A DNA stretch of 64,000 nucleotides from Candidatus Nomurabacteria bacterium GW2011_GWE1_32_28 (GTDB lineage Bacteria > Patescibacteriota > Minisyncoccia > Phycocordibacterales > UBA9973). The translations under genes and the position numbers were made by a program. Location: assembly GCA_000989515.1 (NCBI GenBank), contig LBOM01000005.1, forward strand, positions 2,709-66,708, given 5' to 3'. Of this stretch, positions 3,696 through 22,117 are shown in pieces; the first letter of the stretch is position 1, and each line of letters begins with the position of its first letter. The notes below the pieces were generated by a model that saw only the letters and a program-made list of their open reading frames with translations, was not told where the DNA came from and ran no database searches.

Positions 3696-5456
3696 ATGCA
3701 AAAACAAAAACAAAAAAAAGTTAATAATCAGTCAGGTGCTGCAATGTTGGTGTCTATTGTTTTTTTTCTTTTTATTTCTCTTGCTATAATTTCTGGTCTT
3801 GTTTCACCATCTATTCGTGAATTTAAAAATGCTAATGTTGATTTAAGTTCAAAGAGATCATTTTTCTTAGCTGAATCAGGTATTGAAGATGCATTTTATA
3901 GAATATTAAAAAATAAAATGATAGGAACAAATGAAAATATTACGCTCGATTCTAATTCGACCACGACTACTATTACAACTCTGGAAGGTGGTGAAAAGCA
4001 GATTATGTCACTTGGTGATGTTTCAAATTATGAAAGACAAATAGGTTTAAAACTTTCTACTGGCAGTGGTGTTTCTTTCAATTATGGAGTACAGGTAGGA
4101 CAAGGTGGTATTAATTTAGTTGGTAGTGGTACCGTAAACGGAAATATATATGCAAATGGTCCAATTACTGGAGATGGTTCTGCTATCATCACTGGTACAG
4201 CAATTTCAGCTAATAGTCCTGCTCTAGCTGCAGACCAAGAAAATGGAGTTGGAATTCCAGACTACAATGTTACATTTGGAAATACAAATAGTACTCAAGA
4301 TATTGCTCAAAGTTTTAAAGTTGGAACAGAAAGTCCATTAAATAAAATTCAAATTTATGTTAAAAAAGTTGGTAATCCAAGTAATGCTACTGTTAAGATA
4401 GTCAATGATGTAAATGGAAATCCTGGTACTACAATATATGCTAGTGGAACACTTTCTGCTTCTGCTGTTACTACTTCATATGGATGGTTAAATATTACTT
4501 TCTCGTCTAACCCGTTACTTGATGTTGCCACGACTTATTGGTTAATTCTTGATGCAAGTACTTCTAGTAGTAAATATTATGTTATTGGTGCATCAAATAA
4601 TGGATATTTAAATGGTGTTGGAAAGATTGGTCAATCAAGTGGGATCTGGAACAATACAACACCAGAAGGACTTGATTATTATTTTGGTATTTACCTTGGT
4701 GGTTTTAATGGACTTATACAAGGTAATTCTCTTAGTCAGTGGAATCAGCTTCATGTTGGTACTATATCTGGTTCTGCTCAGGCTCATACTGTAAATTATA
4801 CGAACGCTACTGGAAATATATATTGTCAAACAGGGACTGGTAACAACAAGCCTTGTATCTTGCAGACTGATCCGACTTATATAGATTTTCCTGTTTCAGA
4901 AGCAAATATTTTACAATGGAAAACAGAAGCAGAGGCAGGTGGAGTTTATAATGGTAATTATTCGGTGGGTTGGGCTGGTGCAACCCTGGGTCCTAAAAAG
5001 ATAATTGGAAATTTGACAGTCTCAGGTGGAGGTATCTTAAATGTTACTGGTAGACTATGGGTTACAGGAGAGATTACTCTTAATGGTGGTGGAACGATTA
5101 AACTTGATTCAAGTTATGGCTCAAATGATGAGGTAATTATTTCTGATGATGAAGTTTCTATTTCTGGAGGAGGTCATGCAAGCGGATCTGGTACTGAAGG
5201 AAGTTATATTATGATGTTTTCTACTTCTACTGAGAGTGATGCAATGTTGATTTCTGGTGGAGCTGGTGCTGTTATTGCATACGCTCCTTTTGGCACTATC
5301 ACTATCTCTGGTGGTGCTTCTCTAAAAGAAGCTACAGGATATAGAATAATTGTCTCTGGTGGATCTAGTATTACTTATGAATCTGGTTTGACTAATAATA
5401 ATTTTTCTAGTGGACCTTCTGGTTCATGGGTAGTAGAAGAATGGATGGAGAAATAA
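3696..5456 (+). CDS. Large pilus-associated protein with a PilX-like N-terminal anchor and a Gly/Ser/Thr-rich beta-rich body
   Basis: SG|AAMLV plus a hydrophobic helix, with no Glu at +5. It is the last gene of the pilin block. The function is an inference. Confidence 0.45.
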   Translation: MQKQKQKKVNNQSGAAMLVSIVFFLFISLAIISGLVSPSIREFKNANVDLSSKRSFFLAESGIEDAFYRILKNKMIGTNENITLDSNSTTTTITTLEGGEKQIMSLGDVSNYERQIGLKLSTGSGVSFNYGVQVGQGGINLVGSGTVNGNIYANGPITGDGSAIITGTAISANSPALAADQENGVGIPDYNVTFGNTNSTQDIAQSFKVGTESPLNKIQIYVKKVGNPSNATVKIVNDVNGNPGTTIYASGTLSASAVTTSYGWLNITFSSNPLLDVATTYWLILDASTSSSKYYVIGASNNGYLNGVGKIGQSSGIWNNTTPEGLDYYFGIYLGGFNGLIQGNSLSQWNQLHVGTISGSAQAHTVNYTNATGNIYCQTGTGNNKPCILQTDPTYIDFPVSEANILQWKTEAEAGGVYNGNYSVGWAGATLGPKKIIGNLTVSGGGILNVTGRLWVTGEITLNGGGTIKLDSSYGSNDEVIISDDEVSISGGGHASGSGTEGSYIMMFSTSTESDAMLISGGAGAVIAYAPFGTITISGGASLKEATGYRIIVSGGSSITYESGLTNNNFSSGPSGSWVVEEWMEK

Positions 5457-14398: not shown

Positions 14399-15091
14399 AT
14401 GTCTAAAAAAGGAAAACTAATAGTAATAGATGGAACAGACGGAAGTGGAAAAGCAACACAGGTTGAGCTTTTAGCTAAAAGATTAAAAAAAGAAGGCAAG
14501 ACAGTTAAAATAATAGATTTTCCTGATTATTATTCTAATTTCTTTGGTAAATTTATTGGGCATTGTCTAACAGAACAATATTATAATTTTGTTAAAGTTC
14601 ATCCTAAAATAGCTTCAGTCTTGTATGCAGCAGATAGATTTGAATCAAAAATAAAAACAGAAGATTGGCTTAAGAGAGGGTATATAGTAATAGCAAATAG
14701 ATATGTTTCTGCAAACCAGATTCATCAAGGTGGTAAGATAGCTAATATAAAAAAAAGACAAGCTTTTATTAAATGGCTAGATGAAATGGAATATAAAGTT
14801 TTTAAAATTCCAAGGCCAAATGTTGTAATTTATCTAAATCTTTCTATCCCTTTTATATTAAGTCTTATAAAAGAAAGAAATAAAAAGAGTAATCGTTCTT
14901 ATGTTGGTAAAAAGAAAGATATTGTAGAAGGTGATATAAAATATCTTACAAATTCTCAAAAGAGCGCTGTTTGGTTAGCAAAAACACAATCAGAATTCGT
15001 GCAAATAAAATGTGTAAATAAAAATATATTACGAACTAGAGAAGATATTCATGAAGAAGTTTATGAAAAAGTTAAAAAAATTACTAGATAA
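14399..15091 (+). CDS. tmk: Thymidylate kinase-like nucleotide kinase
   Basis: P-loop IVIDGTDGSGKATQ, a DRF/DRY-like motif and a lid region. Confidence 0.7.
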   Translation: MSKKGKLIVIDGTDGSGKATQVELLAKRLKKEGKTVKIIDFPDYYSNFFGKFIGHCLTEQYYNFVKVHPKIASVLYAADRFESKIKTEDWLKRGYIVIANRYVSANQIHQGGKIANIKKRQAFIKWLDEMEYKVFKIPRPNVVIYLNLSIPFILSLIKERNKKSNRSYVGKKKDIVEGDIKYLTNSQKSAVWLAKTQSEFVQIKCVNKNILRTREDIHEEVYEKVKKITR

Positions 15092-15103: not shown

Positions 15104-15436
15104 ATGGAATTAAAAGAATATCAAAAAAAAGCATTATTAACAGCATTTCATCCAGAAAAATATAAAATTATTTATCCAGCCTTAGGGCTTGGCAACGAAT
15201 CTGGAGAAGTAATGGGGAAGATAAAAAAATGGTTGCGTGGTGATGATAATGGAGAGACCATGAGCGAAGACAGGAAAGAAGCAATAAAAGGAGAATTGGG
15301 TGATGTGTTGTGGTATTTAGCAGTATTGGCTCACGATTTAGATCTATCTCTTGAAGATATTGCTAAATATAATTTAGATAAATTGCAATTGAGAAAAGAA
15401 AGAGGAACGTTAAAAGGCGATGGAGATACAAGATAG
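15104..15436 (+). CDS. MazG-like nucleotide pyrophosphohydrolase (single-domain)
   Basis: ESGEVMGKIKKW ... ELGDVLWYL helical EXXE pattern, in a 110-aa protein. Confidence 0.7.
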   Translation: MELKEYQKKALLTAFHPEKYKIIYPALGLGNESGEVMGKIKKWLRGDDNGETMSEDRKEAIKGELGDVLWYLAVLAHDLDLSLEDIAKYNLDKLQLRKERGTLKGDGDTR

Positions 15437-15443
15437 AATAATT

Positions 15444-17198
15444 ATGAAAGAGAAAATAGAAAATTTAATAAAAAATTCTTTAAAAGAATTTGATATAGAG
15501 ACTAACAATATTTTTTTAGAACATCCTGCAGATATAAAGATGGGAGATTATTCTACGAATGTAGCGATGGTTCTTGCTAAAGAAAATAAAACTAGTCCTA
15601 AAGAATTGGCGGAAAAGATAGCTGGAGAAATAAATAAAATGATCGCTATTTCTCTAGATTTAAGGTTGGATGTTGATAGAGTAGAGGCAAAAAATGGATT
15701 TATTAATTTTTATTTGTCTAAGAATTTTTTGATTGATTCTATTAAAGAAATTTTAGAAAATAAAAATTTTGGGAAAAATAATTATTTTGATGGTAAGAAG
15801 GTAATGATTGAATACACAGATCCAAATCCTTTTAAGCCTTTTCATATTGGACATTTGATGAGTAATGCAATAGGAGAATCTATTTCTCGTATTTTTGAAT
15901 TTTCTGGAGCAAAGGTAGTTCGTGCAAATTATCAAGGAGATGTCGGTCCTCATGTAGCAAAAGCTGTTTATCAAATGTTGGAAAATATAGATGATACAAA
16001 ATCTCTAATGATGGATAATGTTTCTTTGACTGAAAAGATTAATTATATTGGAAGTTCTTATTCAAAAGGAAATGATGTTTATGAAAATAAAGAAGAGTGT
16101 AAAAAAGAAATTGATGAAATAAATAAAAAAATTTACGAAAGAAGTGATAAAAAAATAAATGAGATTTATGATTGGGGAAGAGTTCTTACACTGGAAGCAT
16201 TTGAAGAGATTTATAAAAAATTAGGTACTAATTTTAATTATTATTTTTTTGAAAGTATAGTAGCGCCTATCGGTCTTAAGATAGTACACGAAAATTGTGA
16301 TGAAAATAAGTCTGATAATATTTTTGAGAAGAGTGATGGAGCAATAGTTTTTCATGCAGAAAAATATGATTCAAGGCTTCACACAAGAGTTTTTATTAAT
16401 TCTAAGGGTTTGCCTACATATGAGACTAAGGAGCTGGGGCTTACTCAAATGAAATTTGAAAAAGAAAAATTAGATTTATCTGTTGTAATAACAGCAAATG
16501 AACAAGAAGAATATATGAAAGTTGTCAGTAAGGCATTAGAAATAATAAATCCAGGTATTGTTCATAAGATGAAACATATAGTGCATGGCATGATGCGTCT
16601 TTCTTCTGGAAAGATGTCTTCTCGAAAGGGTAATGTTATAACAGGAGAGTCTCTGATAATAGAATCTTGTGATAAAATTTTAGAAAAAATAAAAGATAGA
16701 GATTTTACAGATGAAGAAAAAAAACAAATAAGTAATGATGTCGGTGTGGCCGCGCTTAAATATTCTATTTTAAGACAAGATATTAGTGGAAATATTATTT
16801 ATGACGCAGATAAATCTATTTCATTTGAAGGAGATTCTGGGCCATATTTACAATATTCATATGCTAGAGCTTTCTCTATTTTAGAAAAAGCTAAAGTAGA
16901 AAATATTTTACCAAGTTTTGTATTTTCAGAGATTGATGTTAATGTTTTTGAAATAGAAAAATTATTATATAGGTTTCCTGAAATAGTATTACGTGGAGCA
17001 CAAGAATTTGAGCCACATTATATTGCAAATTATTTAGTAGATATTGCTCGTGCGTTTAATGCTTTTTATGGGAATAATAAAATTATAGACAAAGATGATT
17101 CAATGTCGTCTTATAAAGTAGCTCTTACATTAGCTTTTTCTTATGTTATTAAAAATGGACTTTATCTATTGGGAATTAAGTCCCCCGAAAGAATGTAG
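15444..17198 (+). CDS. argS: Arginyl-tRNA synthetase
   Basis: PFHIGHLMSN (HIGH), MSSRKG (KMSKS-like) and a DALR-type C-terminus. An alternative ATG at 15420 overlaps the upstream gene. Confidence 0.9.
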   Translation: MKEKIENLIKNSLKEFDIETNNIFLEHPADIKMGDYSTNVAMVLAKENKTSPKELAEKIAGEINKMIAISLDLRLDVDRVEAKNGFINFYLSKNFLIDSIKEILENKNFGKNNYFDGKKVMIEYTDPNPFKPFHIGHLMSNAIGESISRIFEFSGAKVVRANYQGDVGPHVAKAVYQMLENIDDTKSLMMDNVSLTEKINYIGSSYSKGNDVYENKEECKKEIDEINKKIYERSDKKINEIYDWGRVLTLEAFEEIYKKLGTNFNYYFFESIVAPIGLKIVHENCDENKSDNIFEKSDGAIVFHAEKYDSRLHTRVFINSKGLPTYETKELGLTQMKFEKEKLDLSVVITANEQEEYMKVVSKALEIINPGIVHKMKHIVHGMMRLSSGKMSSRKGNVITGESLIIESCDKILEKIKDRDFTDEEKKQISNDVGVAALKYSILRQDISGNIIYDADKSISFEGDSGPYLQYSYARAFSILEKAKVENILPSFVFSEIDVNVFEIEKLLYRFPEIVLRGAQEFEPHYIANYLVDIARAFNAFYGNNKIIDKDDSMSSYKVALTLAFSYVIKNGLYLLGIKSPERM

Positions 17199-17233: not shown

Positions 17234-20200
17234 ATGGATAAAGATATAAGTAAATCAGAAGCAGCGCTTCGAGAAGAGGCTGTTTTAGAATTTTGGAAAG
17301 AAAGTAAGATTTTTCAAAAGTCTCTAGAAAAAGAAGCACCAAAAGGTGAATTTATTTTTTATGAAGGTCCACCAACTGCAAATGGTAAACCTGGAATTCA
17401 TCATCTTGAAGCAAGAGCATTTAAAGATGCGATACCTAGATATAAAACAATGCGAGGGTATCATGTTCGCAGAAAAGGCGGATGGGATACACATGGTTTG
17501 CCTGTGGAGCTTCAGGTAGAAAAGAAACTAAATTTAGATTCAAAAATTGCAATTGAAAAATATGGAATTGCAAAGTTTAATCAAGGTTGCAAAGAAAGTG
17601 TTTGGGAATATACAGATCTTTGGAGTAAATTTACAGAACGTATTGGTTATTTTGTTGATCAAGAAAATGCTTATGTAACATATCATAATTCTTATATCGA
17701 GTCTGTCTGGGGTGTTCTTAAAAAAATAGATGAACAAAATTTACTTTATAAAGATTATAAAGTCGTACCTTGGTGTCCAAGATGTGGTACAGTTCTTTCT
17801 TCTCATGAGCTTGCTCAAGGATATGAAGATGTAAAAGATTTATCAGTGACAGTAAAATTTAAAATAAAAGGACAAGAAAATACTTATATTCTCGCTTGGA
17901 CGACGACACCTTGGACATTGCCTGGAAATGTTGCTTTGGCAGTAGGAGAGAAGATTGATTATGTAAAAGTTAGTTTAAATGGAGTTTTTTTAATTTTAGC
18001 AAAAGCACGTTTATCTATAATAGAAGGAGAATTTAAAATAATAGAAGAGATTAAAGGTAAAGACTTAATTGGATTAGAATATGAACCACTCTATCCTTTT
18101 TTAAAAGATACAATTTCTGAGAGCGAAAAACCTAAATTAAATAAAGCTTTTAAGATTTATGGAGCAGATTTTGTGACGACAGAAGATGGTACAGGTGTAG
18201 TACACACTGCTGTCATGTATGGACAAGATGATTTTGTATTGGGTACAGAGATTGGGTTACCAAAACATCATTTAGTTGGTCTTGATGGTGTCTTTTTAAA
18301 GGGTACAGGATTTCTAGAAGGTAGATTTGTTAAAGACGAAGAAGTTGCTATTGATATTATTAAAGATTTGGCGAATCGTTCAACTGATCCACTTTTATTT
18401 AAAAAAGAAAAATATGAGCACTCGTATCCTCATTGTTGGCGTTGTAAAACAGCTCTTATATATTATGCTCGTGACTCTTGGTATATCAAAATGTCTGATA
18501 AAAAAATAAAGGATAAAATGATACAAGAAAATAAAAGTATAAATTGGGAACCATCTCATATTCGTGATGGACGTTTTGGTGAATGGTTAAAAGATATTAA
18601 AGATTGGGCAATTTCTCGTGAACGTTATTGGGGGACACCTCTTCCTGTTTGGGAATGTGTTTCTTGTAAAAAAAGAGAAGTTCTTGGAAGTTTAGACGAA
18701 ATAAAAGAAAGAACAAAAAAATCTGGAAATAAATATTTTGTAATGAGACACGGTCAAGCAGAAAGTAATTTAAAAAATACAATAAGTTCTAAAGTTGAAG
18801 ATGTTGATCATTTAACTGAAAAAGGGAAAAAACAAGTTTTTGATTCTTTGTCTGAGTTAAAAAATAAAAAAATTGATTTTATAATCTCTTCTGATTTTAT
18901 GAGAACAAAAGAAACAGCAGAGATTATAAAAAAAGGACTAGGGATTTCTAATAATAATTTAATTTTTGATAAAAGAATTTGGGAATTATCTGCTGGGATA
19001 TTTGATGGTAATACATGGGATAATTTTTGGGAAGTCCGTGAGAACGGAGAAGGTTATTTTTACAAACCAGAGGGTGGTGAATCACACAAAGATCTCAAGT
19101 TGAGAGTTATTAGTTTTTTATATGATTTAGAAAAAAAATACAAAGATAAGAATATTTTAATCATAACTCATGAAGGACCAGCACGTCTTCTTATTGCTGG
19201 GTTAAAAGGTTTTAATGATATTAATACTATAGAATATTTAAAAGATAATATTGTAAAATTTGATAATGCTGAAATTAAAGAACTAGACTTTGTTTCTATT
19301 CCACATAATGAGAGTTATGAGCTTGATTTACATAGACCATATATTGATGATATAGAAATTGAATGTGAATGTGGTGGAGATCTAATAAGAACAAAAGAAG
19401 TCATGGATGTTTGGTTTGATTCTGGTGCGATGCCTTTTGCTCAAGATCATTATCCGTTTGAAAACAAAGAATGGGTAGATAAAAAAGGTTATCCTGCAGA
19501 TTTTATCTCTGAGGCAATAGATCAGACTCGTGGATGGTTTTATACATTACACGCTGTTGGTGTATTGATGGGACGTGGTAAGGCCTATAAAAACGTTATA
19601 TGTTTAGGTCATTTACTTGATTCAAAGGGTAAAAAGATGTCTAAATCTCTTGGTAACATTGTAGATCCTTGGTCTATGATCGAAAAATATGGAGTAGATA
19701 CATTGCGACTTTGGATGTATTCTGTAAATCAGCCTGGTGAATCAAAGAATTTTGATGAAAAAACCGTTATAGAACTTCATAGACAAGTTTTTGGTTTACT
19801 TTATAATGTTTTAGCTTTTTACGAACTTTATAGAGATATACAACTAGAAACTATTGAGTATAAAAAGTCAGAAAATATTTTAGATAAATGGATTTTAGCT
19901 AGACTTGATGAGTTAATAGATTTTACGACTAAACATCTAGATGATTATAAATTACTTGAACCGACTAGGGCGATAAGAGATTTTATTGGAGATCTTTCTA
20001 CCTGGTATTTGCGTCGCTCAAGAGATAGGATAAAAGATGGAGACAAAGAAGCAAAGCAGACCTTATATTTTGTTTTAAAAAATCTTTCAAAGATAATGGC
20101 ACCATTTACACCTTTTGCCGCTGATGATATATGGTTAAAACTTAAAAATGAAAAAGACATAGAAAGTATTCATTTAGCAGAATGGCCCAAATCATCAAAA

Positions 20201-20716
20201 ACAGTTTTTGATATTTTTAGTAATGGTAAAAATAAAATTTTAGAAGAAATGAAAAAAGTTCGTGAGATTGTTACATTAGGATTTGAAGCTCGACAAAAAG
20301 CAGGTATAAAGGTTCGTCAACCATTAGCGAAGATTCAAATCAAAAATCATACTCTTGATAAAGAGTATGATGAATTAATAAAAGATGAATTAAATATAAA
20401 AGAAATAAAAGAAAATAAAAATATTGAAAGAGGTGTTCTGCTTGATATAGAGATTACAGAAGAATTAAAAGAAGAAGGATGCTATCGTGAATTTGTAAGA
20501 AGCGTGCAGGATATGCGAAAAAATATTGGTCTTACTCCCAGCGATGTTATCTCTCTTTTTATTGAAACGAATGATAAAGGTAAAAAATTAATTCAAAAGT
20601 TTGAGATTGATTTACTTAAAGTAGTTCTAGCCTTAAAAGTAGAATTTAAAGAAAATGAAGGGGAATCTTTAGAGATTGATGAGTTAGTGTTTAAAATTCA
20701 AATAGAAAAAAGATAA
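17234..20716 (+). CDS. ileS: Isoleucyl-tRNA synthetase carrying an internal histidine-phosphatase (PGAM-like) domain insertion
   Basis: PPTANGKPGIHH (HIGH), CP1 editing region TTTPWTLPGN and KMSKSLGN. The insert at about 18722-19315 has RHGQAESN and ITHEGP motifs. Confidence 0.9.
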   Translation: MDKDISKSEAALREEAVLEFWKESKIFQKSLEKEAPKGEFIFYEGPPTANGKPGIHHLEARAFKDAIPRYKTMRGYHVRRKGGWDTHGLPVELQVEKKLNLDSKIAIEKYGIAKFNQGCKESVWEYTDLWSKFTERIGYFVDQENAYVTYHNSYIESVWGVLKKIDEQNLLYKDYKVVPWCPRCGTVLSSHELAQGYEDVKDLSVTVKFKIKGQENTYILAWTTTPWTLPGNVALAVGEKIDYVKVSLNGVFLILAKARLSIIEGEFKIIEEIKGKDLIGLEYEPLYPFLKDTISESEKPKLNKAFKIYGADFVTTEDGTGVVHTAVMYGQDDFVLGTEIGLPKHHLVGLDGVFLKGTGFLEGRFVKDEEVAIDIIKDLANRSTDPLLFKKEKYEHSYPHCWRCKTALIYYARDSWYIKMSDKKIKDKMIQENKSINWEPSHIRDGRFGEWLKDIKDWAISRERYWGTPLPVWECVSCKKREVLGSLDEIKERTKKSGNKYFVMRHGQAESNLKNTISSKVEDVDHLTEKGKKQVFDSLSELKNKKIDFIISSDFMRTKETAEIIKKGLGISNNNLIFDKRIWELSAGIFDGNTWDNFWEVRENGEGYFYKPEGGESHKDLKLRVISFLYDLEKKYKDKNILIITHEGPARLLIAGLKGFNDINTIEYLKDNIVKFDNAEIKELDFVSIPHNESYELDLHRPYIDDIEIECECGGDLIRTKEVMDVWFDSGAMPFAQDHYPFENKEWVDKKGYPADFISEAIDQTRGWFYTLHAVGVLMGRGKAYKNVICLGHLLDSKGKKMSKSLGNIVDPWSMIEKYGVDTLRLWMYSVNQPGESKNFDEKTVIELHRQVFGLLYNVLAFYELYRDIQLETIEYKKSENILDKWILARLDELIDFTTKHLDDYKLLEPTRAIRDFIGDLSTWYLRRSRDRIKDGDKEAKQTLYFVLKNLSKIMAPFTPFAADDIWLKLKNEKDIESIHLAEWPKSSKTVFDIFSNGKNKILEEMKKVREIVTLGFEARQKAGIKVRQPLAKIQIKNHTLDKEYDELIKDELNIKEIKENKNIERGVLLDIEITEELKEEGCYREFVRSVQDMRKNIGLTPSDVISLFIETNDKGKKLIQKFEIDLLKVVLALKVEFKENEGESLEIDELVFKIQIEKR

Positions 20717-20800: not shown

Positions 20801-21277
20801 ATGTCCATTGTATTTGATATTTTAAAGGAATTAAACAATACGACGATTAATTATAAAGGAGGATGTGTTAGTTTGCTTGGGATACCAAAATTTTCTCATT
20901 ATAAATATGGTTCTCTTAAATCTGGGGTTAGTAAATTAAAGAAGAGACAATTAATTATAAAAGATGAATCCGGTTGGTTGTTAACCTCAAAGGGTAAAGA
21001 ATATATTTCCAAGAAACATGATTCTTTGGTTCAATTTGAGTCTCCGTTCAAAAAAAATGATTCTAAAAATTTACTTGTGATGTTTGATATTCCAGAAAAT
21101 AAAAAAGCAGAAAGGGAATGGCTTCGTTGGCATTTAAAGAAATTTAATTATGAAATGATTCAAAAAAGTGTTTGGCGGGGTCCTTCTCCTTTACCTAAAG
21201 AGTTTTTAAATTACATCAAAAAAATAAAAATTTATGATAATTTAAAAATGTTGAAAATATCAAAAATTATTAAATAA
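20801..21277 (+). CDS. PaaX-like protein (winged helix plus Cas2-like central domain). No CRISPR context.
   Basis: LLVMFDIPENKKAEREWLRWHLKKFNYEMIQKSVW matches the Cas2/PaaX-type beta-alpha-beta pattern. The assignment is made by motif only. Confidence 0.5.
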   Translation: MSIVFDILKELNNTTINYKGGCVSLLGIPKFSHYKYGSLKSGVSKLKKRQLIIKDESGWLLTSKGKEYISKKHDSLVQFESPFKKNDSKNLLVMFDIPENKKAEREWLRWHLKKFNYEMIQKSVWRGPSPLPKEFLNYIKKIKIYDNLKMLKISKIIK

Positions 21278-21538: not shown

Positions 21539-22117
21539 ATGCACCATATTTATCACACAGAGGGAATAATATTGAGTAGTGGAGACCTCAAGGAAACAGC
21601 TAAATATTATTCTATTTTTACTCGTGATTTGGGAGTTATTTTTGCTTCTGCTCAAGGTGTACGAAAAATGTCTTCAAAATTACGTTTTGTTTTACAAGAT
21701 TTTTCTTATATAAAAATTGATTTAGTAAAAGGGAAAGATTTTTGGAGAGTTACAAGTGCTTCAAAGACAAATAAGCTTGAAGAATTATCTAAACCAGAAA
21801 TTTTTCAAGTTTTTGTAAATATTTTAAGACTTTTGAAACGTTTGCTTGCTGGAGAAGATCCAAATGAGGGTTTGTTTGTTGATTTGTTGAATGGATTGTA
21901 TATTTTAGAAAAATCTAAAACAGAAGAAGAATTACGAAACATCGAAGCTGTTATTGTTTTACGTATCCTTAATAATTTAGGATATATTGGTGGTAATGAA
22001 ATTTTGAAAGATTTTATTAAGTCACCATTTGAAGAAGATTTGATATTTAAAATTTCTAAAAATAGAGTAAAAATATTACATCAGATAAATAAGGCAATAA
22101 AAGAGACAGATTTATAA
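21539..22117 (+). CDS. recO: DNA repair protein RecO (short form)
   Basis: The N-terminal OB-like pattern EGIILS...YSIFTRDLGVIFASAQGVRK is typical of RecO. Confidence 0.7.
   Translation: MHHIYHTEGIILSSGDLKETAKYYSIFTRDLGVIFASAQGVRKMSSKLRFVLQDFSYIKIDLVKGKDFWRVTSASKTNKLEELSKPEIFQVFVNILRLLKRLLAGEDPNEGLFVDLLNGLYILEKSKTEEELRNIEAVIVLRILNNLGYIGGNEILKDFIKSPFEEDLIFKISKNRVKILHQINKAIKETDL

Follow-up and report, generated by a model that had tools for sequence, protein, structure and literature searches.

A stretch of 64,000 nucleotides from Candidatus Nomurabacteria bacterium GW2011_GWE1_32_28 (contig LBOM01000005.1, positions 2,709 to 66,708; hereafter the window) carries an isoleucyl-tRNA synthetase (IleRS) gene, ileS, whose product holds a histidine phosphatase domain, apparently an active second enzyme, nested within the synthetase chain. 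A preliminary description of the window had proposed such an insertion, and the analysis presented here bears it out. Moreover, in other members of the candidate phyla radiation (CPR) we found the same domain as a free-standing gene next to argS and ileS, or joined to other synthetases, and the comparison suggests that, across this radiation, a single phosphatase module stays with a class-Ia synthetase, whether as its neighbour, as a fusion partner or as a domain within it. Taken together, the identity and fold of the domain, its insertion site, the conservation of its catalytic residues, its phylogenetic spread and its relation to gene order are, in our judgement, almost certain.

The ileS open reading frame (ORF; 17234-20716, + strand) comprises 1160 codons in one unbroken frame, and both this length and all the peptides quoted in the preliminary description are present in it. 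Pfam recognised tRNA-synt_1 in two stretches of the product with His_Phos_1 between them, plus Anticodon_1 and DUF5915, and the NCBIfam model TIGR00392 (ileS) matched, with 857.5 bits versus a cut-off of 621.4, in two stretches flanking the insert. In HMMER searches the best relatives of the product in the PDB were 8c8w (IleRS2 of P. megaterium, E = 5e-248) and 1ile (T. thermophilus, E ~1e-233), whereas the IleRS1 structure 1ffy was far weaker (E = 7.5e-95). This ranking, together with the GIHH motif, indicates that the enzyme is a type-2 IleRS (IleRS2). The motif (aa 54-57; 17393-17404, + strand) is the non-canonical G-X-H-H form of the class I signature. Conservation was assessed in 120 orthologs with 65-80% identity and, for the insert and its zinc-knuckle flanks, also in 25 deep representatives whose synthetase halves are 38-60% identical; GIHH was retained in 108 of the 120 orthologs. 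The G/AXHH motif gives IleRS2 mupirocin hyper-resistance and has never been seen in IleRS1 (PMC10485003). Among the deeper CPR relatives we found IleRS2 enzymes of both the HxGH and the GxHH type, and the phosphatase insert was present in both. An identity with MupA or MupB (NF000257/NF000258) was rejected, since the product is homologous to these proteins as an IleRS2 but scored 763 and 785 bits versus a cut-off of 1900. The KMSKS loop (aa 801-805; 19634-19648, + strand) was found in 118 of the 120 orthologs, and the core motifs of the CP1 editing domain, TTTPWT (aa 223-228) and GTGVVH (aa 319-324), which span 17900-18205 on the + strand, were invariant or nearly so in 31 orthologs. With its signature, KMSKS and CP1 editing motifs conserved, the synthetase itself looks fully functional, in agreement with the earlier statement that the frame is continuous and that both IleRS halves are intact.

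The position of the insert was evident from the HMMER alignment to 8c8w, in which residues 10-492 of the query correspond to residues 10-476 of the chain and residues 690-1067 to residues 479-856. Therefore, about 197 residues (aa 493-689) replace about two residues of the solved enzyme. At the corresponding site the insert-less CPR IleRSs have 3-13 residues, and the earlier remark that an ordinary IleRS has only a short linker where about 190 extra residues stand here was thus accurate. Delimited by the alignments to 8c8w and to insert-less CPR IleRSs, the nested domain occupies 18710-19300 (+ strand) at the tip of the connective peptide 3 (CP3) hairpin; the interval first proposed, 18722-19315, lies within 4-5 codons of these limits. 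On either side of the domain stand the two halves of the CP3 zinc knuckle, C475-V-S-C478 (18656-18667, + strand), with Cys in 118 of the 120 orthologs, and C711-E-C713 (19364-19372, + strand), conserved in 117-118 of them. In about one third of the deep relatives the first half of the knuckle (C475/C478) is missing although the insert is retained. CP3 forms the connection between CP2 and the Rossmann fold's second half, its topology varies among IleRSs, and its zinc motif, present in the IleRS of T. thermophilus, is absent from other IleRSs (PMC7191050). This implies that CP3 is a peripheral and evolutionarily plastic element.

The inserted domain was assigned on the basis of both sequence and predicted structure. 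PF00300 (His_Phos_1) matched aa 502-661 of the whole protein with 94 bits (E = 1.2e-26), against a gathering cut-off of 21.7 bits, and the interval 18722-19315 alone with 99 bits (E = 3.2e-28), scores that chance could not plausibly produce. When the insert was modelled alone by AlphaFold2 (AF2) with a multiple sequence alignment (MSA) of its orthologs, the predicted local distance difference test score (pLDDT) was 93.7 and the predicted template modelling score (pTM) 0.91. Foldseek related this model, with a probability of 1.00 and template modelling (TM) scores of 0.75-0.80, to 4ij5, 4qih, 1h2e, 3dcy and 6nru. The top neighbours were the PspA structures 4ij5/4ij6 (TM 0.80), and further neighbours included GpgP, a riboflavin-pathway HFP, TIGAR, PhoE and CobC. 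The PDB sequence matches of the insert named the same small-molecule phosphatases, with E-values from 1e-8 to 1e-5 and 20-26% identity. At the same time, the nearest NCBIfam models (CobC, archaeal phosphoglycerate mutase, PspA and PhoE-type) were all far below their cut-offs. CobC alpha-ribazole phosphatase (TIGR03162; 74-79 bits versus 162.9) and PspA phosphoserine phosphatase (NF045917; 50-54 bits versus 350) are its nearest relatives with a name, and membership was rejected in both cases. The models of the cofactor-dependent phosphoglycerate mutase (dPGM) gave similarly low scores: 72-75 versus 225 bits for NF038349, 37-42 versus 316 for PRK01295 and 25 versus 82 for TIGR01258. The features specific to the mutases are an E-R-x-Y sequence after the catalytic Glu and an H-G-N at the distal His. 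The former was not found, the residues after E584 being variable (EMSL, ETSS, ELSA and others), and H646 is followed by GG, EG or GD, with HGN in only 5 of the 120. Because the mutase motifs are absent, the dPGM scores low and the nearest structures those of small-molecule phosphatases, the insert is predicted to be a short branch-1 phosphomonoesterase of the PhoE/CobC/PspA-like type and not a phosphoglycerate mutase. No second His_Phos copy was found within the 64-kb window.

The catalytic residues of the domain are far better conserved than the domain as a whole. The nucleophile motif R505-H506-G507 (18746-18754, + strand), in which His506 is the predicted phospho-acceptor, comes immediately after strand E8-13 of the AF2 insert model. 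Its R and H, as well as R557, the second phosphate-binding Arg in SSDFMRTKET (18902-18904, + strand), and H646, the distal catalytic His in ITHEG (19169-19171, + strand), were present in all 120 orthologs and in all 25 deep representatives. The RHG, R557 and ITHEG motifs named in the preliminary description are therefore in place, and their Arg and His residues are conserved in the orthologs. E584 (18983-18985, + strand), the predicted general acid/base, a role which we take from what is generally known of this phosphatase family, was found in 115 of the 120 orthologs and as E or D in 25/25 deep representatives; its spacing, 27 residues past R557, matches that of the family. Three further positions were nearly as constant: N512 (120/120 orthologs and 19/25 deep representatives), E616 (119/120 and 25/25) and R624 (120/120 and 24/25). 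The loci seemingly without RHG carry RHS, RHP or RHA with the remainder of the catalytic set intact, and R505-H506 was retained at all loci and in every tandem copy. Mean identity was 48% for the insert versus 79% for the synthetase body. The pocket is thus invariant despite the fast divergence of the insert, which implies selection on catalysis, and the nested domain would be a complete and probably active histidine phosphatase.

The preliminary description had suggested a search for the same nested architecture in related CPR genomes, and there it was found widely. The identical protein occurs on 11 contigs, and it is the one annotated as IleRS in Candidatus Nomurabacteria bacterium GW2011_GWE1_32_28. 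All 120 best homologs, which are 1138-1355 aa long (NCBI, JGI, ENA, Logan), combine PF00300 with the IleRS domains. An exhaustive search with the insert over 1.8 billion 50%-identity representatives yielded 1266 proteins at E ≤ 1e-10. Among the best 150 of these 1266 matches, 94 were IleRSs carrying the insert at exactly this junction (70 of them with both flanks), and 40 were free-standing, about 190 aa long and apparently complete; a single protein each was nested in a valyl-tRNA synthetase (ValRS), fused to an arginyl-tRNA synthetase (ArgRS), fused to Sua5/YrdC, and attached in four tandem copies to a class-I synthetase fragment. In a scan of the GTDB species genomes, from which the best 80 of at least 600 matching stretches were taken, insert-bearing IleRSs were listed from Paceibacteria, Minisyncoccia, Yanofskybacteria, Spechtbacterales, metagenome-assembled genomes labelled 'Saccharibacteria', and Peregrinibacteria/Peribacteria. 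None of the non-CPR IleRS2 enzymes among the matches listed (Bacillota, Ignavibacteria, Chloroflexota, archaea and others) carried the insert, and a few Patescibacteria IleRSs among them were also without it. The annotation of these proteins is uneven: the NCBI pipeline calls many insert-bearing IleRSs (P0005, P0011 and others) only 'class I tRNA ligase family protein', and JGI mislabels some of the 190-aa free-standing phosphatases (P0292, P0369) 'isoleucyl-tRNA synthetase'. Other free-standing members carry the label PhoE.

This distribution also bears on whether the architecture could be an artefact, that is, a chimera, a frameshift joining two genes, or an intein-like selfish insertion. 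A chimeric assembly or a frameshift, the latter already dismissed in the preliminary description, was ruled out by the 11 contigs and by hundreds of divergent orthologs from independent projects (NCBI, JGI, ENA, Logan) that contain both junctions; the junctions are shared by 120/120 of the best homologs and by 94/150 of the closest representatives, and the GC content is continuous across both. An intein was likewise ruled out, as there was no match to a HINT or endonuclease domain and the fold is that of a histidine phosphatase. In addition, the N-terminus of the insert is RTKKSGNKY, while an intein would need to start with Cys or Ser, and the PHN at the C-terminal junction precedes Glu, where an intein would have Cys, Ser or Thr after HN, with H691 found in 9 of the 25 deep relatives. 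The one observation that could favour an artefact is a frame break within the insert of a related locus, L017 (2681-4733; Candidatus Yanofskybacteria RIFOXYD1_FULL_42_10). Here the IleRS frame ends at aa 516, just past RHG, and the remaining phosphatase domain continues in another frame, which may reflect either a pseudogene or a frameshift introduced in sequencing. We regard the probability of an artefact in the window as negligible.

The free-standing relatives make up a large family in CPR (643 matches; Staskawiczbacteria, Nealsonbacteria and 'Patescibacteria group'), and their genomic positions connect them with the nested domain. In 7/7 contexts retrieved, the free-standing phosphatase (~190 aa) lies directly downstream of argS and upstream of an ileS that is insert-less and encodes 957-1008 aa. 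The phosphatase gene overlaps argS by 1-37 nt in L081, L083-85, L088 and L090, and the other three contexts have a spacer of 0-199 nt; the stand-alone gene is predicted to be translationally coupled to argS in these lineages. A NUDIX, CYTH or small unknown gene sometimes stands between the phosphatase and ileS, and the block is usually preceded by SmpB/IF3/L35/L20 and a pyrH-like kinase and followed by x-recO. The window has the corresponding order: the thymidylate-kinase gene tmk (14399-15091), a 110-aa MazG-like NTP pyrophosphohydrolase (15104-15436) whose end overlaps the start of argS, argS itself (15420-17198, + strand; 592 aa, assigned from its ORF and synteny), a 35-nt spacer, the insert-bearing ileS, a small ORF and recO (21539-22117, + strand; Pfam RecO_N/RecO_C), the downstream marker of the argS-(phosphatase)-ileS-x-recO block. 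The small ORF between ileS and recO (20801-21277) encodes 158 aa with matches to PaaX_M (Cas2-like central domain) and CRISPR_Cas2. The block order with recO was also observed in L081, L083-85, L090, L091 and L093. From these arrangements, the nested domain and the neighbouring free-standing gene appear to be evolutionarily one module. The statement in the preliminary description that the architecture is not a fusion of neighbouring genes holds for the present-day gene, which encodes a nested domain, with the nuance that in related CPR genomes the free-standing homolog is the upstream neighbour of ileS.

The module was also encountered joined to other synthetases. The ArgRS-phosphatase fusion P0238 lies in the same block, from which ileS is gone, and in the neighbour-joining (NJ) tree of the domain it groups with the free-standing genes, as would be expected of a read-through fusion. 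The ValRS-nested form uses the same CP3 site and is encoded at a different place, its genome having an argS with no phosphatase beside it. In the NJ trees, which have long branches, midpoint rooting and no support values, insert-less IleRSs are scattered among insert-bearing ones, and in the likewise unsupported domain tree most of the free-standing phosphatases fall into one clade. Two side observations concern the same blocks. In two unrelated contexts of the free-standing gene (L086, 3890-4663; L090, 1558-2535), the pyrH-argS-phosphatase-ileS block has a reverse-transcriptase (RVT_1) gene just upstream. The insert-less ileS genes of L083, L089 and L090 are highly divergent: their products read NPWLDA in place of DVWFDS, have GVHH as signature and branch as an outgroup in the NJ tree. 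They may be replaced or horizontally acquired copies beside a retained free-standing phosphatase.

Some relatives carry more than one copy of the phosphatase. The IleRSs of Peregrinibacteria/Peribacteria (~1470-1490 aa; L016 at 4001-4795, L018, L019 and L020) contain two diverged copies, of which the second is in the other CP3 knuckle loop, where it replaces the C-x-C pair; the catalytic motifs are present in both. P0176 has its second copy where the catalytic domain meets the anticodon-binding domain, and in P0177 and P0251 the copies stand in tandem. P0123, from a 3.9-kb ENA contig and cut by the contig end, comprises a class I synthetase's N-terminal half and, after it, four copies that all have RHG. 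RH[G/A] was found in all copies of the multi-copy forms, and the distal His in all complete copies. Altogether, the attachment points seen were the CP3 tip, the second CP3 loop, the catalytic/anticodon boundary, the ArgRS C-terminus and the YrdC C-terminus. A few orthologs have other additions: in P0040 (aa 1122-1233) and P0116 (aa 1160-1269) an HD domain lies within the DUF5915 region at the C-terminus, and in P0255 (aa 747-863) the WFESG strand is followed by a P-loop kinase-like domain. All three extra domains gave only weak, sub-threshold matches (APS, shikimate and guanylate kinase, Pnkp1, HDIG, 5'-deoxynucleotidase), and using them to derive the substrate class of the phosphatase was given up because the matches are too generic to type it. 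As to the Sua5/YrdC fusion, a survey of CPR YrdC/TsaC (t6A) proteins homologous to the YrdC part of P0135 (P0398-P0510) gave the O6-methylguanine methyltransferase DNA-binding domain as the commonest partner, along with TruB, 2H/CPDase cyclic phosphodiesterase, NUDIX, GNAT, purine DNA glycosylase and histidine phosphatase. The value of this fusion as a sign of a tRNA function is thereby weakened, since YrdC in CPR has many unrelated enzymes as fusion partners.

Regarding function, the explanation that we favour, and to which we would give about an even chance, is that the domain is an autonomous small-molecule phosphatase that is tied to class-Ia synthetases so that the two are expressed together. 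The insert belongs to a synthetase-linked phosphatase module that occurs in several arrangements across CPR. In it, the phosphatase and the synthetase would act as two independent catalytic units on one chain, and the linkage would mainly secure their one-to-one co-expression and co-localisation. By the chemistry of the family, His506 would attack a phosphomonoester to form a phospho-enzyme that is then hydrolysed by water, with R505, R557 and H646 as ligands of the phosphate and E584 as the acid/base. The substrate would be a small phosphorylated metabolite, with a nucleotide-type phosphomonoester as the leading guess. The autonomous phosphatase is favoured because the nearest relatives are small-molecule enzymes, and the scattered attachment points argue against a geometry-dependent coupling to one active site. 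Two further points count in its favour: the block repeatedly contains genes for nucleotide handling (tmk and mazG in the window; NUDIX/CYTH and pyrH-like kinases in relatives), and CPR genomes freely fuse unrelated housekeeping enzymes, as in the case of YrdC.

Several observations weigh against this explanation. Every partner of the domain among the closest relatives that are not free-standing is tRNA-related and ATP-consuming (IleRS, ValRS, ArgRS and Sua5/YrdC), and the module appears to track one or another class-Ia synthetase when ileS moves. Neither the set of partners nor this tracking is obviously explained by co-expression, and both would fit a link with tRNA or with the products of aminoacylation. 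In addition, nesting that is retained over a very deep CPR divergence is structurally costly for co-regulation alone. The unsupported NJ trees give no direction, be it capture into ileS or excision from ileS, and the AF2 model of the full-length protein, built from an MSA of 31 sequences, was poor (pLDDT 67, pTM 0.41, with the Rossmann core below 50).

The partner set is the main argument for an alternative in which the phosphatase is a third active site of the synthetase. It would strip a 2'- or 3'-phosphate from the acceptor end, or another end, of the tRNA held by the synthetase, or carry out the second step of removing a 3'-pyrophosphate, and would thereby restore chargeability, by analogy with the nested CP1 domain that receives the CCA end. 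All fusion partners (IleRS, ValRS, ArgRS and YrdC/Sua5) bind tRNA or make a tRNA-modification intermediate, and the module stays with a class-Ia synthetase when the gene order shifts. The blocking of tRNA by pyrophosphorylation of the 3'-CCA is documented (bioRxiv 10.1101/2021.04.30.441581; PMC11559606). Moreover, the few orthologs with an HD hydrolase or a P-loop kinase-like domain are reminiscent of end-healing sets, and the two diverged copies of Peribacteria could perform sequential steps. However, our literature search gave no branch-1 histidine phosphatase acting on RNA ends, and the scattered attachment, including the ArgRS C-terminus after the anticodon-binding domain, is ill-suited to reach the acceptor end. 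The near-universal, housekeeping-like distribution in CPR is also unlike the patchy one expected of a counter-toxin. The basic isoelectric point of the free-standing forms (median 9.7 versus 6.5 for the nested ones) was discarded as a hint of RNA binding, as it equals the genomic background, small ORFs in the same loci being at about 9.5. We consider a tRNA-end phosphatase of this kind unlikely, though worth keeping in view; the fuller proposal, that CPR bacteria have a third catalytic site dephosphorylating tRNA with a 2'/3'-phosphorylated or pyrophosphorylated CCA end, so that repair and charging proceed on one platform and the stand-alone, ArgRS-fused and ValRS-nested forms are variants of one tRNA-repair module, seems to us rather doubtful. 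The same partners would be consistent with the clearance of products in cis, where hydrolysis of pyrophosphate (PPi) or AMP pulls aminoacylation forward or feeds nucleotide salvage. IleRS, ValRS, ArgRS and Sua5/TsaC all turn ATP into AMP and PPi, a by-product thus common to all hosts; the neighbouring MazG, NUDIX and CYTH genes encode hydrolases that produce PPi or nucleoside monophosphates (NMP), and rare orthologs add an HD_3-like (5'-nucleotidase-like) or an NMP-kinase-like domain. Still, we know of no histidine phosphatase of this branch that is an inorganic pyrophosphatase, tethering would gain little for diffusible products, and the matches behind the HD and kinase assignments are weak, falling short of the family cut-offs; product clearance is in our view decidedly unlikely.

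The remaining alternatives are less likely still. The domain could be a protein phosphatase or regulator, like PGAM5, Sts-1 or SixA, that removes inhibitory phosphorylation from the synthetase or from translation factors and gives resistance to kinase toxins or a link to signalling. Protein phosphatases do occur in the histidine phosphatase superfamily, SixA gave a weak match (35 bits versus a cut-off of 74.5), and stoichiometric linkage to the synthetase would suit a self-acting enzyme. We nevertheless hold such a role to be quite improbable, as the nearest neighbours in sequence and structure are small-molecule phosphatases and not PGAM5, Sts or SixA, and no kinase partner was seen in the conserved block. 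That the insert is a catalytically irrelevant structural module, an enlargement of CP3 for folding, tRNA binding or protein-protein contacts, could be argued from the variability of CP3 among IleRSs (PMC7191050), from the faster divergence of the insert compared with the body, and from the exchange of the RHG Gly for A, S or P in a few lineages. On the other hand, R505, H506, R557, E584 (E/D) and H646 are kept over deep divergence and in tandem copies while other positions drift, which makes a purely structural role very improbable. Finally, the chance that the insert is a glycolytic dPGM parked inside IleRS is slim indeed: the weak matches to dPGM models (72-75 bits for NF038349) and the PGAM-like fold are set against scores far below the cut-offs, the absence of E-R-x-Y, H-G-N and the long mutase insertions from a domain of ~190 aa, and top structural neighbours that are phosphatases.

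As to novelty, the PF00300 phosphatases, IleRS2 with the CP3 knuckle, and synthetases with extra catalytic domains are known already. New are the nested architecture, its breadth in CPR, and the fact that it interchanges with ArgRS and ValRS fusions and with a gene standing alone between argS and ileS. The sequences and Pfam matches are public, and the novelty lies in their recognition and interpretation. The preliminary description had found the architecture seemingly undescribed, and our full-text literature searches agree with it, as no prior description of a phosphatase in IleRS was found in the texts searched for it; two recent studies devoted to IleRS evolution and architecture mention neither CPR nor a phosphatase insert (PMC10485003; bioRxiv 10.64898/2026.02.03.703510). 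Among enzymes, the aminoacyl-tRNA synthetases belong to the best studied and most conserved, and here one of them, the housekeeping IleRS, contains a second enzyme with an intact catalytic set over a large part of CPR. The separate-gene, ArgRS-fused and ValRS-nested forms make the synthetase-linked phosphatase a defined and testable system. If its substrate were tRNA or a product of aminoacylation, ultra-small symbiotic bacteria would have a new level of upkeep for translation; were it instead an unrelated metabolic enzyme, it would be a striking case of genome-minimal organisms nesting genes within essential genes. In either case, metabolic reconstructions may miscount the nested domain as a phosphoglycerate mutase.

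In comparison with known systems, the insert has the fold, the catalytic set and the length (~190-210 aa) of the short branch-1 phosphatases (Geobacillus PhoE, Hydrogenobacter PspA, CobC, GpgP Rv2419c, TIGAR), but it is only 20-26% identical to them, falls below every equivalog cut-off and is nested in a synthetase rather than free-standing. The host resembles the solved IleRS2 enzymes (8c8w, 1ile) on both sides of the insert and has the GXHH, KMSKS and CP1 motifs and the four-Cys CP3 knuckle in common with them, whereas at the tip of the CP3 hairpin it has 197 extra residues and the solved enzymes about two. The NCBI-curated family NF040702 'ileS_w_GNAT' is a precedent for an IleRS with an extra enzyme domain; its accessory fold is GNAT instead, and the window protein, with 319 bits versus a cut-off of 1999, is not a member. 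Branch-1 phosphatases fused to other enzymes are known from the RNase H/acid phosphatase of the Rv2228c type (NF005567) and from PFK-2/FBPase-2, to which the insert has weak matches (60-63 bits; PDB). However, these are end-to-end fusions with other partners, whereas here the phosphatase is nested and its partners are aminoacyl-tRNA synthetases. Another parallel is in the same enzyme. The CP1 editing domain is a hydrolytic domain in the Rossmann fold of class-Ia synthetases, so that a synthetase of this class can host a second active site, and the phosphatase is likewise a hydrolytic domain nested in that fold. Nevertheless, CP1 is universal, acts on mis-acylated tRNA and has another insertion point, whereas the phosphatase is CPR-specific and has an unrelated fold.

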